From contig JBJXGI010000063.1 of NCBI GenBank assembly GCA_046153645.1, positions 1-57,110 of the forward strand: DNA of 57,110 nucleotides, given 5' to 3'. Source of the DNA: Elusimicrobiota bacterium. GTDB lineage: Bacteria; Elusimicrobiota; Elusimicrobia; F11. Position numbers: made by a program. Positions 12,001-21,000 of the stretch are shown here, piece by piece (position 1 is the stretch's first letter; every line of letters begins with the position of its first letter).

Positions 12001-15000
12001 CCAGCCCCACATTGCTTTTCACCTTGTTCATTGACAGTTTTTCTCCTTCCCGAGCTATCACACCCATATCAGCAAACACAGCCCAACCCCAGTGCATGAG
12101 GCTTAACCAATCATATAATAGGATTTGGCGATCTTCTAAAGTGAGTAAAACCTTTTTATTTCCATCAAATTGACGAATAGAATATCCTCGGAGCCCGTTT
12201 TCACCACCCAACAGCAGTTGATCCTCAGGATCTGGATTAATCAACGTTTTATATTCTAAACGAGAAAAAGCGGTATGCGATTTCCACCAATCTTTAAAAA
12301 AATAAAAACTGACCAATCGACTCGTTCCAGCTATTGTTTTTCCACTTTCATATCGAGAATCGTACTCATAATGGTTCATCCAATACTGTTTTGGGAAAAA
12401 GGAAAAATTCTTAGTGAACTTGGTTCTGTAATGGATAGAGTTATGAGTGGCACCTAAACTTTTAAGTGATGGCCCCCCCTCTATTGTAGCTTGCCATCCT
12501 AAATTAATATCTTCAACTCGATCAAAGGTAAAAAGTCCTTGCTCTTTAATAAATCTCTGCCGGGAAAATTCGAACCCACTTAAAATAACACTGTGTGTCC
12601 TTCTTTGAGGTAATTGAATAGAAGAAAAGGGCTCCATATTCGAAAATCGACTCTCATCAAATTCATAGGCGCCGAACCAACGGATAATTTTATCAGAACT
12701 CTCTACAATTTTATGCGAGTAAAAAGCCCGCCCATAAGCTTCTTTCTGATCAAATTTAGAAATAATATTTCTATCCCTATAAAATTCAATTTCGTTGTTT
12801 GCTTTTCTCCACTGAACACCCTGCGATGAAGGGGTATAACGCGAAAAATAAGGCCGACTTAAATCAACAACCAATTCATTTCCTTTATTATCACCGGCGT
12901 AAGTACTTGCCAATTCCCATCTGGTTTTTAAAAATTGACGGTCTCTAAAAAAGTACCCGTTTCCAAAACGATCGGCGTCTTGACGAACATAAGCCCCCAC
13001 AACCATTCCTTGGCCAAGAAAATTATTTTCTAAAATACCAAAACGGTAATAGTTTTCGCCTCCCGCGGCTCCATATGTGAGTTGAATGGAAGTGGTCCAA
13101 ACATCTTGAGTTTCAATCAAAATATCTACAGATTCTTCATCAATGACTTGTGCCTGAATGACAACCGACCTGAAAATGGGGCGCCGCCTCAAAATGCGTT
13201 CTGACTCTTCGAGCTTTTCTAAATCAATAAAATTTCCCTCTTGAAACAGAATTTCTCGACGAATAAAACTCTCTTTCGTGACAATATGAAGACGATTGGC
13301 TAGGGAAAAAGGAAAATCTTTTTGAAAAGGGGTTCCATCAAAAAGATTTTTTCTGTTAATAAGAATATGACGAATTTTCTGTGATTGGACTTGAGTAAAA
13401 GCTGGTGAAATCAATCCGAAAAGAATGGCTAGGAATAAAGTACGCCAAATAAGAAAACTAAACCGCAAGTTGTCGAGACACAAACCGGATAACAGTTTCC
13501 GGGGTGGGATCTTTTAAAAGAAGAGTTTGTATGTTTTTCAAGATTTGTGAGAACTCCTGTTGTAACTCTTTAAAAATTAGTAACGAAGCGGGGTTACTGG
13601 TGTATGTTACTGCACAAGTACCGTACTTGTCATTAGAAATTGGTGAAGTATACATACCAAACCAATCAACCAACTCGGTGAGATGCTGAGACCTTTGAGA
13701 ATCTTCTTTAATAAGTAAATTGACTACCTCTGGGAGCTTTTTCATGTCTGGCAAGGAAAAGAAAGAAATGCCATTGGTATCATCCTCTGAGCGATTCGCG
13801 ACAAAAAGCCTCCATAAACTTCCAAAAGTAGGATCTTTAACAATGCTTTGAGGCTGCCAGAAAGGAACCCAATTAATACTTAACTTACCAGAATAAGACC
13901 CCTCTAAATAATAAACACATCCTTGACCTTTTAAAAAAGTTTGCCGGTCTGACTCTTTTAAATTACGCCAGGCCAAATCTTTTAAGCTCCCTGGAAAAAT
14001 GACAAATAAATTAGATCCACCTATTTTCTTTAACATTGAAAGGAATATGGCATCAAATAAACTCTGGGAGTGGGTAATATTCCAATAATCACTTAAACGT
14101 TTTATATCGCCATCTATATCTGTTTTATAACTCCACCAGGGGAATAAGGCCTGCCGGGCCTCAACTGTCATTGACCAAATAGACATTTTAGGATCATGCA
14201 CGTCGTAGATATGATACTGAGGGTTAACCAATTTCTTGAAATCTATATCCTTGGCTAACTCTCCAGCGTCTTCATTTAATTTAATAACATCAATTCCCAT
14301 AACATTTTCCTTTGACAAAAATGTAGCAGGGATGTCATTAAATTGCCATATTGAGTGACCAGAGTCACAGACGGAAAAACGAGTTGATTTTCAGTATTAA
14401 TTATGGAATGTGTTTTTAATTATTCTTAACTGGCTAAGAGTTGCTCTACTTTTTTAAGTAATTGTTTCGGTATAAATGGCTTGGCGAGAAAGTCATTGGC
14501 CCCAGAATCAAGAATCCTTTTTTGATTGGCTGGTGTAACATATCCAGTAATGGCTAGAACTTTTGTCTTTTTCTTTTTCTCAGTCTTTTTCATTGAAGCG
14601 CAAATATCAAAACCATCAACACCCGGCAGATACAAGTCTAAAACAACCAAATCTGGTTTAAACGAAACCCATTTTTGTCCCGCAGAAAACCCATCCTTAG
14701 CGGTTTCAACAATGAATGGAATAGATATTTTCTTTAAAGACCGCAAAATGATTTTTAACAATTCCGCGTCATCATCTACAACTAAAATTCGCCTTTCTTG
14801 ATTTTTTAACTCATCAGGAATGGGCATTTTATATTTATTAAAAAATTCAACGAGATCTTGCTCTTGAATGCGGCGGTGACCTCCGGGGGTTTTATAAGCC
14901 TTTAATTTCCCTTGATTAACCCAAGACATGACAGTGGTGATATCTACCGAGCAAAACTGGCTCACTTGGAATGTGGTATAGATTCGATCAGGCATAAACA

Positions 15001-18000: not shown

Positions 18001-21000
18001 AGCGACTGGGCACTATTTACTCACCACTGGAATATTAAGCTTTTTCTTCGCAATTTTAATCGCTGCCATTACCAACAACTTTAAAATTAGTTTTTTTTCA
18101 TTTCTTATCTTTTTATTACTCCCTGCCCTTCAAAAACAGCTATCGAACCGTATCGGTTTATGGAAAGTTCAAAGTGGATTGTTAAACCGTGGTCAAATTA
18201 AACAAATCAATTCCATTTCTGATCGAATTAAAAACTCTGGGTATAAAATCTCAGAATTAGCCCAAACCGTAGGAGAAATTCTTCTTGACAGTTTTCCCGT
18301 ATCAAATTGTGCCATCTATATTATGAATGACAGTGGCACACATTTTTCTTTTGAGGCTCCCTCCCAATTTAAAATGAAATTTCCCTCACAGATCCTTCAA
18401 AATGACAGTCTTACAAAACGATTGGAAAATTACCAAAGAGATTTAATCAATACGGTTGAATTTGATTTGCTCATTCAAACCAAATCAACAATAGCCGTTC
18501 CTTTTATTGTTTTAGACCGAGTTGTGGGTTTTATATTAATGGGAGAAAAAGAAGATAAAAAACCTTTTTTTACAAATGAAATAAACGAATTATCATTTAT
18601 TGCGAATGAAACCTCAGTGGCACTGCGTTATGTTTTAGCCGTATCAAAAGCCGCCTCAGAAACAAAACAATGGGCACATAACATGAATCAATACTTAAAA
18701 CCACTTGCTCATGGTTTTAATGTACTGGCGGATATAGACCCCCATATCGCAGAAAATCCTGTTAAAAGAGAAGTGTATCAGAGGATTCAACGCCCTTTAA
18801 ATCGCTTGGCTGATTTCCTTTATTATTTAACTCATCAATCTAGAATGATAGATGAATCCTTACGAAACCGATATCATTTATCTCTTGTAGATTTAGAGGA
18901 AATTATTGATAAAGGTGTTTTCAGTTATCGTTTTAGTTTGGATAAAAAAAATATTTATTATGATCGAAAAATGGCGATACCAAAACAAAGTATTATGGGA
19001 CACACTCAAGACCTCATTTCCCTTTTTGAAGGGTTAACCAGCAATGCCGTTCGTTACACTCCCATCAATGGCACTATTAAAGTAAGAAGCAAAATAAATG
19101 GGGAAACAATTGAAATTCAATATGAAAATGATGGGCCATCTATTCCGACCGATAATTTAAGCCAAATTTTCAATGAAGGATTTCAAATAAAAAATGGCTT
19201 CGAAGGAACGGCTGGGCTTGGTTTAGCTAACACGAAGAGAATTATTGAGATGCATGGGGCTACCATTGAAGCGGAAAATATCGATCAAAATCAAGGCGTT
19301 AGATTCACGATGCGATTTCCTTATAAGAAATAAAAATATGATGAAATATAAAATACTTATTATTGAAGATGATGAAGATACTGCCACTATTCAATCTCTT
19401 TCGTTAGCTCCCCTGGGATTTGACGTGGAAATCATTAATCATGGGAATAAAGCCCTCCTCTTTATTAAACAATGGCAACCTGACATCCTCATTTTAGATT
19501 TGGAACTTCCTGGGAAATCGGGAGTCGAAATTCTCCAAGAACTATCGAAAGAAACAGAATTCAACCAAATGATTATTATTGCCAATACCATACATATGGA
19601 TATAAAAGATGATTTGGGCTTTTCATACTATACCCACTTTTTGAAATGGAAAAATAAAGAACCCACAATGATAAACAAATTATCCAGAGATGAATCAAAA
19701 AGGGCTGACATTCGACATGTTATCGCCACCATGTTAATGGAAAAATTCGGAGTTCTTCCCCCCGCTTTTTCTCAGTGGCTAAAATTAAACCCGGCGTAAA
19801 CTCAACCGAATCCTAGACATTAAATCAGAAGGGGAAAAGGGTTTAACAATAAGGTCTATTTCGTCGTCTATTAAATCGGACTTAACCACCTCATCATTGG
19901 TATAACCTGTCATAAACAAGATTGGTAATTTTTTGTTTTCTCTTTTTAACCGTCGGGCCAATTCCAGCCCTCCCATAAAGGGCATGACAAGATCTGTCAA
20001 TAAAAAGTCGATATCTGTTGTTTTCTGGCGAAACAATTCAAATGCTTCTTTTCCATTAGAAGCCTCAATAACGGTATAGCCGTTTTCGAGCAAAAGTCTT
20101 TTGGTTAAACGCCGGACAGATTCTTCATCTTCAACCAAAAGAATAGTTTCTGATCCACGAAAATTAGATGTTTTTTTTAATTTTGGCTTTCGTGGTCTAA
20201 CCGTCATGGCTTGTTGGGGTAAATAAATATCAAATTGACTCCCAGAACCCACTCGACTTGTTACATGAATATGTCCTTGACTCTGATTAATGATTCCATA
20301 AACAGTGGACAGTCCCAATCCCGTTCCTTTCCCTTGCTCTTTGGTGGTATAAAAAGGTTCAAAAATGTTTTTCAATATTTCCGGACTCATCCCCATACCT
20401 GTATCTATAACACTAAGAAGAACATAGGCTCCAACGGGAATGTTGGGAGGAGAATCTTTAACAGAAATGTTTTTCGTGATAAGTCTGACCACCCCCCCTT
20501 TTGGCATGGCATCACGCGCGTTCACCACTAAATTAACAATCACCTGCTCCATTTGCCCCACATCGACAAACACGGGGCACAAATTAGCCTCCGTCTCTAT
20601 TATTAATTGCACGTCTTCTCCAATTAACCGTTGCAACATTTTGCTTAAACTCAATAAAACAGAATTCACATGAACCATTTTTGGTTGGAGTAATTGTTGA
20701 CGACCAAAGGCAAGCAACTGTCGAGTCAAATCAGTTGCGCGAAGGGCGGTTTTTTTAATTTCATTAACATCATCTAAAATATTTTTATATTTAGAAGAAG
20801 AAAGTAAAAACTCGCTATAACCAATAATAGCGGTTAACAGATTATTGAAATCGTGAGCAACCCCTCCAGCCAAACGACCAATGGCTTCCATCTTTTGTGC
20901 TTGCACCAGTTGTTGTTCGCTTTTTTTAAGGGCCGCTTCGGTTAATTTATGATCGGTGACATCAAAAGCAATACAGCGAAGGCCAATTGGTTTTTTCTCA

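Follow-up and report, generated by a model that had tools for sequence, protein, structure and literature searches.

A family of GNAT-fold proteins is strongly linked to histidine kinases carrying the HisKA_7TM sensor domain, and in one Elusimicrobiota genome the two are encoded together with a radical SAM enzyme and a receiver in a compact cassette. We consider it probable (roughly 0.6) that this cassette comprises a signal synthase, a tailoring enzyme and a receptor, with the same molecule being made and sensed. The window, i.e. the whole stretch of DNA analysed, spans 57,110 bp of a genome that is 99.7 % complete. All five ORFs were found where the initial annotation had located them, with the following arrangement:

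14426..15001, minus strand: divergent regulator with an excisionase-type HTH (HTH_17) and a receiver
15002..15131, no strand: AT-rich intergenic region of 130 bp separating the cassette from the divergent regulator, as read from the sequence
15132..16271, plus strand: PilZ-like and GNAT fusion of 379 aa, with the PilZ-like domain at about residues 10-125 and the SxtA/CurA/GphF-fold GNAT at residues 155-373
16286..17302, plus strand: radical SAM enzyme of 338 aa, of the RaSEA/QueL/MnmL/Elp3 group
17312..19333, plus strand: histidine kinase of 673 aa with HisKA_7TM and a weak GAF domain
19341..19799, plus strand: single receiver protein, with a likely ATG start at 19338/19341 (ORF caller start 19245)

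The cassette thus consists of four genes on one strand, separated by gaps of 9-14 bp. Two receivers had been assigned to it, of which only the one on the plus strand is plausibly a member; the divergent HTH-receiver gene is not conserved at other loci and is possibly a local output of the cassette. The stretch is covered piecemeal by two DNA sequencing runs, at an identity of at least 99 %, and neither indels nor joints are listed for them; no RNA sequencing run containing the stretch is listed.

Association between the GNAT and the kinase proved larger than the 20 of 31 loci first counted. Of 105 GNAT loci, 62 had a 7TM domain no more than 5 kb away; all 30 kinase neighbours tested matched PF16927, 29 of them above the cut-off. 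When loci with 3 kb on both sides were grouped at 70 % identity, the kinase was present in 16 of 21 clusters and absent from five. An independent sample of 401 Patescibacteria-phylum genomes gave 12 GNAT matches outside the seed genome, amounting to about 10 independent cases, and in every one a 7TM domain lay 36-1250 bp away. As a background rate, 121 Patescibacteria genomes of about 1 Mb contained 92 PF16927 matches (~0.8 per genome), and in genomes G348 and G366 the kinase beside the GNAT was the sole match. Pairwise identities of the GNAT, radical SAM and kinase genes also co-varied (rho 0.71-0.78 across 23 loci, the pairs being non-independent). The breadth over phyla originally claimed is less certain. 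Linkage in CPR bacteria was borne out, whilst the Omnitrophota, Nitrospirota and Bdellovibrionota labels are doubtful: the loci bearing the first two (L002 and L010) are MAG contigs of 3.4 and 5.4 kb whose GNATs nest among CPR-type sequences in a quick tree, and the genome labelled Bdellovibrionales measures only 0.9 Mb. These features suggest that the phylum labels may be binning errors.

Several kinase-free GNAT loci have a catabolic setting, adjoining transporter, agmatinase-family or regulator genes; L014 lies beside a transporter and a MerR gene, and the neighbours of L016 are LuxR/AraC regulators and a gene of the arginase/agmatinase family. Some loci have arginine and SAM decarboxylases at their flanks, and the sister group of the GNAT is fused to nitrilase-type hydrolases. 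Such contexts favour a sensor-plus-output arrangement, in which the 7TM kinase detects an external amine, for example a polyamine, and induces the GNAT and radical SAM enzyme to acylate and degrade or detoxify it. We regard this as unlikely, as no uptake transporter was recognized among the annotated neighbours of kinase-linked GNATs, the mutual replacement of three unrelated partners, the radical SAM enzyme among them, fits product variation better than a single catabolic route, and the equivalent slot at other 7TM kinases is mostly filled by biosynthetic-type genes. At 17 of 20 other CPR 7TM loci, a hand-picked set with no neutral baseline for enzymes flanking any gene, a recognizable small-molecule enzyme was found within two genes of the kinase, including two LuxI/FeeM-like proteins, six ThiF proteins and five amino-acid decarboxylases. 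Control 7TM loci bear TIGR03694-like acyltransferases, and four further 7TM genes in the host genome surround an HMG-CoA-reductase-like gene. Occupation of this slot by LuxI/FeeM-like and other small-molecule enzymes supports the signal enzyme and receptor interpretation that had been proposed at the outset. The pairing itself was confirmed; the proposal was weakened or qualified as regards the decarboxylase lead, the radical SAM enzyme as a core component, the second receiver and the phylum breadth.

The nitrilase fusions illustrate how the GNAT fold extends beyond this setting. A search of 300 genomes from the phylum of the window returned two GNAT matches, both nitrilase-type (CN hydrolase) fusions without a 7TM neighbour. 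Together with stand-alone GNATs from Bacillota, for which the label 'YkwB-like' had been used, these fusions share the extended fold (TM about 0.9) and the H, GxRIP, D and S motifs of the cassette GNAT, from which both aligned fusions differ in having Gln at the Tyr326 position. No paper on their function was found.

The cassette kinase matched PF16927 with 41.5 bits (cut-off 28.6) and HATPase_c with an E-value of 1e-15. Its His456 lies in a divergent H-box, in register with the corresponding His in 11 relatives; the N-box is retained, and the G1 box lacks its second Gly. The cassette receiver has the phospho-acceptor Asp and an atypical C-terminal half. The divergent H-box and G1 box and the atypical receiver count against a signalling function. 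The 7TM profile had no match in the PDB and so gave no link between the HisKA_7TM domain and LuxN or CqsS.

Profile searches (E 1e-20 to 4e-11), Foldseek and VIA-align all upheld SxtA, CurA and GphF as the closest relatives of the GNAT domain, the VIA-align superpositions reaching Z 23-24 with an rmsd of 2.1-2.4 across 190-196 residues, against Z 18 for the next row. The fold is shared down to the same insertions, at about 20 % identity. Taken with P0118, a single methyltransferase-GNAT fusion that echoes a PKS didomain, this similarity could indicate that the GNAT decarboxylates (methyl)malonyl thioesters in the manner of the loading domains of SxtA, CurA and GphF. Decarboxylation, however, requires a His and Thr/Ser dyad (PMC3701320), and the reported loss of these residues held, with Ala291 and Tyr326 standing in their place in the cassette GNAT. 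Among 150 family representatives, the CurA His389 position is Tyr in 134 and His in one; Thr is outside the five commonest residues at its own position, where Gly, Ala or Ser occurs. The GNAT is a stand-alone type, and no PKS or ACP gene was seen in the cassette. Since the catalytic His is replaced by a conserved Tyr, which canonical GNATs use as their general acid (PMC3701320), the lead from the fold matches is weakened and we consider decarboxylase activity very improbable.

Many polar pocket residues are near-invariant in the family, which has its own invariant Trp, His, Arg, Asp and Ser set (conserved residues W181, W232, H245, R292, D320, Y326, D343 and S346). The CoA-binding motif A (Q/RxxGxG/A) is degenerate or lost in the cassette GNAT; only 40 of the 150 representatives and 14 of 41 radical SAM loci retain it. 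The acidic base position on beta-4, as assigned from the alignment, is Ser256 here, and Asp, Ser and Asn in 42, 48 and 40 of the 150, respectively, so that an acidic residue is not conserved there; this and the frequent loss of motif A count against the signal-synthase reading. Searches of the GNAT against Pfam and NCBIfam returned no match, and the LuxI/FeeM families PF00765, PF13444 and PF21926 gave none at E 0.1, whilst proteins from control loci did match them. Provided that the cassette both produces and detects a signal, the GNAT probably acts by acyl transfer.

The radical SAM enzyme matched the RaSEA equivalog TIGR01210 at E 1.8e-51 (175 bits; cut-off 212), reproducing the sub-threshold match noted previously. 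This was the top family match for all 30 members compared, in which the cysteines C48-x9-C58-x2-C61 and C298/C301/C326/C328 near the C terminus are invariant. Given the score below the cut-off and the lack of any ArcS (DUF5591) match in the host genome, in a search that was positive for three archaeal controls, the enzyme is not archaeosine RaSEA. Two relatives nonetheless exceed the cut-off (215 and 217 bits), so automatic annotation will misname such proteins. The nearest relative with a solved structure is queuine lyase; this enzyme, RaSEA, MnmL/YhcC and Elp3 belong to the same radical SAM group as the cassette protein, which differs from RaSEA in being bacterial, without an ArcS partner, and linked or fused to a GNAT. 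RaSEA (PMC11298593) and YhcC/MnmL (10.64898/2026.05.18.725915) both remove N-substituents. By analogy, if the cassette makes and senses a signal, the enzyme may cleave a C-N bond, at slightly less than even odds.

This kinship also raises the prospect that the radical SAM enzyme and GNAT form one tRNA-modifying machine, akin to Elp3 or archaeosine synthesis, with the kinase regulating it. Elp3 is itself a radical SAM/GNAT enzyme, RaSEA and MnmL act on tRNA, and QueC is present in the host genome. Fusions of the two cassette enzymes occur in eight of 150 GNAT representatives, five in GNAT-radical SAM order and three in the reverse, Elp3 order; in the cassette they are separate genes, unlike the single radical SAM-then-KAT chain of Elp3, and a complex predicted for them, scoring 0.09 against a mark of 0.32, speaks neither for nor against an interaction. 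The Elp3 model TIGR01211 did not match the enzyme of the window and matched only six of 30 members, weakly. In addition to the missing ArcS, the patchy occurrence of the enzyme (0 of 11 same-family genomes) its absence from 64 of 105 GNAT loci and its replacement by membrane proteins make a role in RNA modification a distant prospect. A search for the radical SAM enzyme in 251 genomes from the phylum of the Omnitrophota-labelled genome yielded one weak match (E 3e-27), on a 3.9-kb locus without a GNAT.

Linkage of the radical SAM gene to the GNAT is nevertheless real and larger than first reported, at 41 of 105 loci compared with six of 31. It is one of several interchangeable partners as opposed to a core member: the radical SAM gene (41 loci), a PEMT-like methyltransferase (seven) and a 4-TM domain (23) never occurred together, and the first two were swapped between GNATs that are 81 % identical. 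Fusion of the GNAT to the 4-TM domain, with its conserved Glu and Asn, in 21 of 150 representatives, along with the PEMT/ICMT-like partner, the frequent loss of motif A and the PilZ fusion, would suit a GNAT whose target at the membrane is the kinase or a lipid, or which regulates the kinase by binding a ligand, no diffusible signal being involved. Against this, the near-invariant polar pocket, a radical SAM enzyme from a group that cleaves C-N bonds and further partners that are soluble methyltransferases (NNMT-like, class I and B12-radical SAM) point to a small-molecule substrate, and we think this alternative improbable. The 4-TM partner could not be assigned to the PEMT/ICMT-like proteins, as its model (pLDDT 89) found no clear match, the best (Z 8.2, rmsd 3.3 over 92) being typical of helical bundles. 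Nor is it a general exporter of other 7TM loci (no matches in 20 control loci). A class I synthetase fragment was considered for a 200-aa partner, c5, found at 10 of 105 loci, and was rejected for want of a match in Pfam, the PDB or Atlas. No dedicated exporter or regulon for the cassette was identified.

PilZ domains are characterized by the motifs RxxxR and D/NxSxxG. The fusion had been described as PilZ-containing, and Pfam PilZ (PF07238) does match close homologues, though not the cassette protein itself, in which RxxxR is present and the second motif reads D-V-N-Q-Q-G. We infer that the PilZ-like domain would place synthesis under c-di-GMP control in the lineage of the window.

On the favoured reading, the cassette would make and receive a chemical signal and be organized after the fashion of LuxM-LuxN or CqsA-CqsS. 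The core GNAT would make a small molecule, most likely by placing an acyl group on an amine, and the optional partner would tailor this product. In the present cassette, the radical SAM enzyme would most likely trim the N-substituent of the GNAT product by C-N cleavage, as in its characterized relatives, whilst a methyltransferase-like protein or an uncharacterized membrane protein in its place at other loci would yield a different product. The adjacent HisKA_7TM kinase would sense the product in the membrane and phosphorylate the receiver. Linkage and fusion of the genes, mutual exclusion of the partners, folds and residues are observed, whereas the making and sensing of a signal, acyl transfer, C-N cleavage and c-di-GMP control are inferred. 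No radical SAM enzyme is known to produce a small-molecule autoinducer.

More speculatively, and with the odds against it, HisKA_7TM kinases may form a large family of autoinducer receptors with swappable synthases in CPR and other uncultivated bacteria. The GNAT would be an undescribed class of synthase, the RaSEA-like enzyme would make signal by radical C-N cleavage, the radical SAM, methyltransferase and 4-TM partners would constitute chemical dialects, and the PilZ fusion would couple output to c-di-GMP. Of the 121 Patescibacteria genomes searched, 59, or about half, carry a HisKA_7TM sensor, and literature searches found no ligand for the domain. A small, expressible synthase-tailor-receptor set would make the signalling of host-dependent bacteria directly testable in E. 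coli. If correct, our reading would assign a role to a large GNAT branch that has no name, carry RaSEA-type radical chemistry outside tRNA and put right the annotation of bacterial proteins as 'archaeosine RaSEA'.

LuxM-LuxN and CqsA-CqsS resemble the cassette in that a small enzyme adjoins a polytopic histidine kinase and a receiver; PhcB-PhcS is likewise a quorum-sensing pair of synthase and membrane kinase. Synthase-kinase pairs in CPR are already in print: PMC7567580 describes LuxI-, CqsA- and PpyS-homologue/kinase pairs, with 18 LuxI and 51 CqsA homologues adjoining sensory kinases, and its main text does not contain the words GNAT, radical SAM or acetyltransferase. The cassette differs from those pairs in its GNAT, which is not LuxI/FeeM-type, its HisKA_7TM receptor, which has no solved relative, and its radical SAM partner. 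Neither the GNAT-HisKA_7TM pair nor a cassette of GNAT, radical SAM enzyme and kinase was found in the literature searched, which left most subscription papers outside its coverage. A further parallel is PrsK, which accompanies PEP-CTERM-associated N-acyl amino acid synthases. The cassette has a different GNAT family, no exosortase was seen and the kinase of the window does not match PrsK, whereas two 7TM-GAF kinases tested gave weak matches to it across the sensor region (E 1e-6 and 4e-9).

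The initial annotation had marked out five open reading frames in this region, and their positions were borne out, with the following Pfam and NCBIfam assignments:

14426-15001, minus strand, divergent regulator with HTH_17 and receiver domains
15132-16271, plus strand, GNAT gene with a weak GNAT match
16286-17302, plus strand, radical SAM gene scoring 175 bits on TIGR01210 against a cut-off of 212
17312-19333, plus strand, kinase gene with HisKA_7TM (41.5 bits against a cut-off of 28.6), a weak GAF match and HATPase
ending at 19799, plus strand, gene with a receiver domain

The GNAT, radical SAM and kinase genes share a strand, with intergenic gaps of 14 and 9 bp. 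The window's genome carries single copies of the first two and six HisKA_7TM matches; the window's kinase has the His and divergent boxes. We give roughly 60 % probability to the cassette being a signal synthase plus receptor, whereby the GNAT would make an N-acylated small molecule that a partner enzyme would tailor and the HisKA_7TM kinase would read. The divergent regulator was not seen at other loci of the cassette. A convergent PAS-PAS hybrid kinase of the CckA type (19785-21779, minus strand) overlaps the end of the receiver gene and was not seen in cassettes elsewhere, and a Tad/Flp pilus-like run lies upstream (7282-10876, minus strand; CpaF-like ATPase, CpaB-like and TadE-like by eye).

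The cassette is real and statistically strong. Among 105 GNAT loci obtained by motif-based scans (the window included), a 7TM domain lay within 5 kb in 62 and a radical SAM gene was present in 41; the corresponding counts were 49 and 34 of 86 at 95 % identity, and 16 and 7 of the 21 70 %-identity clusters with 3 kb on both sides. Because the 7TM profile was derived from the neighbours of these GNATs, 30 neighbouring kinases were checked with Pfam, and all matched PF16927 (HisKA_7TM), 29 above cut-off. We also searched an independent sample of 401 genomes from the Patescibacteria phylum (that of a Parcubacteria record) and found the GNAT in 13, seed included. All 12 non-seed hits, two pairs of which are close kin, had a 7TM domain 36-1250 bp away; in the seed genome it lay 7.5 kb away, with an insertion between. 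As background, 121 genomes of roughly 1 Mb each gave 92 7TM matches, and the expected chance of a 7TM domain at such a distance was well under 1 %. The five well-flanked clusters without a 7TM kinase lay mostly on a separate branch, beside transporter, arginase-family and regulator genes; in one of the five the radical SAM gene adjoined a soluble FHA-GAF kinase. Pairwise identities of the three genes correlated over 23 loci (rho 0.71-0.78), a sequence pattern that shows co-inheritance only. It is unlikely that what the linkage reflects is a GNAT acting on the kinase or on a lipid.

Distribution was patchy. Across 300 genomes of the window's phylum, the only hits of the GNAT profile were two nitrilase-type fusions; such fusions belong, along with Bacillota GNATs, to the wider family. 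The radical SAM profile had no match in 11 same-family genomes. GNAT and kinase occurred together in records named as Parcubacteria, Moranbacteria, Saccharibacteria, Saganbacteria and 'Clostridia' MAGs. The Omnitrophota, Nitrospirota and Bdellovibrionales labels are unsure: loci of the first two are on short contigs with GNATs nested among CPR-type sequences, and the Bdellovibrionales-labelled genome is 0.9 Mb. Three tandem LPG_synthase_C (aminoacyl-tRNA-type GNAT) genes lie just upstream of the cassette in a Saccharibacteria MAG (L023:3666-6490).

SxtA, CurA and GphF were the top matches of a 52-sequence GNAT profile (E 1e-20 to 4e-11) and also matched the predicted GNAT model (pLDDT 92). Ala291 and Tyr326 align in the profile alignment with CurA Thr355 and His389, and among the best 150 representatives the latter position held Tyr in 134 and His in one. 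Since decarboxylation requires the His-Thr dyad and the general acid of canonical GNATs is a Tyr in place of that His, as described in PMC3701320, the loss already noted in the initial annotation points towards acyl transfer, and a decarboxylase is highly improbable. Arg292, Asp343 and Ser346 (148/150 each), Trp232 (145/150) and His245 (133/150) were near-invariant in the same set. Motif A was kept in only 40 of these 150 and is lost in the window's GNAT, which argues against a plain acetyl-CoA enzyme. LuxI draws its acyl donor from a carrier protein, and we would guess at a similar donor here. The N-terminal domain of the window's GNAT protein is PilZ-like, as judged by way of its homologs.

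The radical SAM enzyme is an optional partner, since its gene was present at only one of the 12 independent GNAT loci. Radical SAM-GNAT fusions occurred in both orders (8/150 representatives), and a kinase was present at 30 of the 41 radical SAM loci, 10 of the remaining 11 being short on at least one side. The reciprocal search of the 401 genomes gave radical SAM matches in six: two strong (E 1e-109 or better), at cassette loci, and four weaker, with neither GNAT nor 7TM nearby. The radical SAM gene (41 loci), a PEMT/ICMT-like protein (7) and a 4-TM domain (23) never occurred together, and the first two interchange between GNATs 81 % identical. Other partners were NNMT-like, class I and B12-radical SAM methyltransferase-type domains, and SAM and arginine decarboxylases. 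The 4-TM domain, an unknown four-helix membrane domain in which Glu and Asn are conserved, was found only with this GNAT (for instance at L083:7538-8014) and was fused to it in 21/150 representatives (e.g. at the N-termini of P0041 and P0092). An unknown 200-aa protein, c5 (L083:6896-7483 and nine other loci), has invariant EFxHIY, IDxYN and PCS motifs and no match in Pfam, PDB or Atlas; within the 105 loci it never occurred without the 4-TM domain. One broken cassette (L152:5096-13195, genome G301) has the radical SAM gene split into two ORFs plus a further fragment, about 6 kb of other genes separating it from the GNAT.

The radical SAM enzyme is not archaeosine RaSEA: its score falls below the cut-off of TIGR01210, the RaSEA equivalog, and the window's genome has no ArcS domain. 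Two other bacterial cassette enzymes (P0078 and L123:8154-9179) exceed that cut-off and would thus be annotated as archaeosine RaSEA. The closest solved relative is queuine lyase, which cleaves a C-N bond. RaSEA is described as converting preQ0-Lys to archaeosine (PMC11298593), and YhcC/MnmL as converting cmnm5 to nm5 (10.64898/2026.05.18.725915). As these characterised kin all remove N-substituents, our best guess by analogy is that the enzyme would cleave a C-N bond of the GNAT product; the alternative is methylation, to which the exchange with methyltransferase-like genes points. Elp3-like RNA modification is very unlikely. A separate RaSEA-like branch in CPR (L124:7537-11407, L126) adjoins NAD-synthase-like and nucleotidyltransferase-like genes and has neither the GNAT nor the kinase alongside.

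The general synthase-kinase design is already in print, PMC7567580 describing sensory kinases of CPR with neighbouring homologs of LuxI, CqsA and PpyS. The cassette shares this synthase-plus-membrane-kinase design but differs in its enzyme families, which we did not find described in the literature searched; neither radical SAM nor GNAT is mentioned in the main text of PMC7567580, whose Table S4 may include some of the same kinases. HisKA_7TM is listed as a sensor domain, with no ligand given, in PMC5847659. We picked 20 comparison loci from the 92 7TM matches, favouring strong scores and long contigs. The cassette's GNAT was absent from all 20. In 17, a recognisable small-molecule enzyme was encoded no more than two genes away from the kinase: ThiF (6), decarboxylases of the ornithine, histidine or arginine type (5), methyltransferases (3), LuxI/FeeM-like (2), PaaK-like ligases (2) and an acyltransferase (1), some loci having two. 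That the 7TM kinase is a sensor with catabolic output genes is unlikely. CPR HisKA_7TM kinases (L153-L172) were flanked by ThiF with nitroreductase, pyruvoyl histidine decarboxylase, ornithine decarboxylase with GNAT, LuxI/FeeM-like or PaaK-like genes, and by several unknown genes (L156, L159, L167); this variety is possibly a catalogue of undescribed signals. Contig C48 of the same genome as the window holds a candidate second synthase-receptor cluster (L108:4934-14221), in which four 7TM genes surround an HMG-CoA-reductase-like gene whose product has, by eye only, a PilZ-like N-terminus; a FadL-like barrel (by eye) is also part of it. On contig C34, a 7TM-GAF protein (L109:5908-8091) has a C-terminus resembling, by eye, an adenylate/guanylate cyclase, suggesting that the 7TM sensor serves other outputs too.
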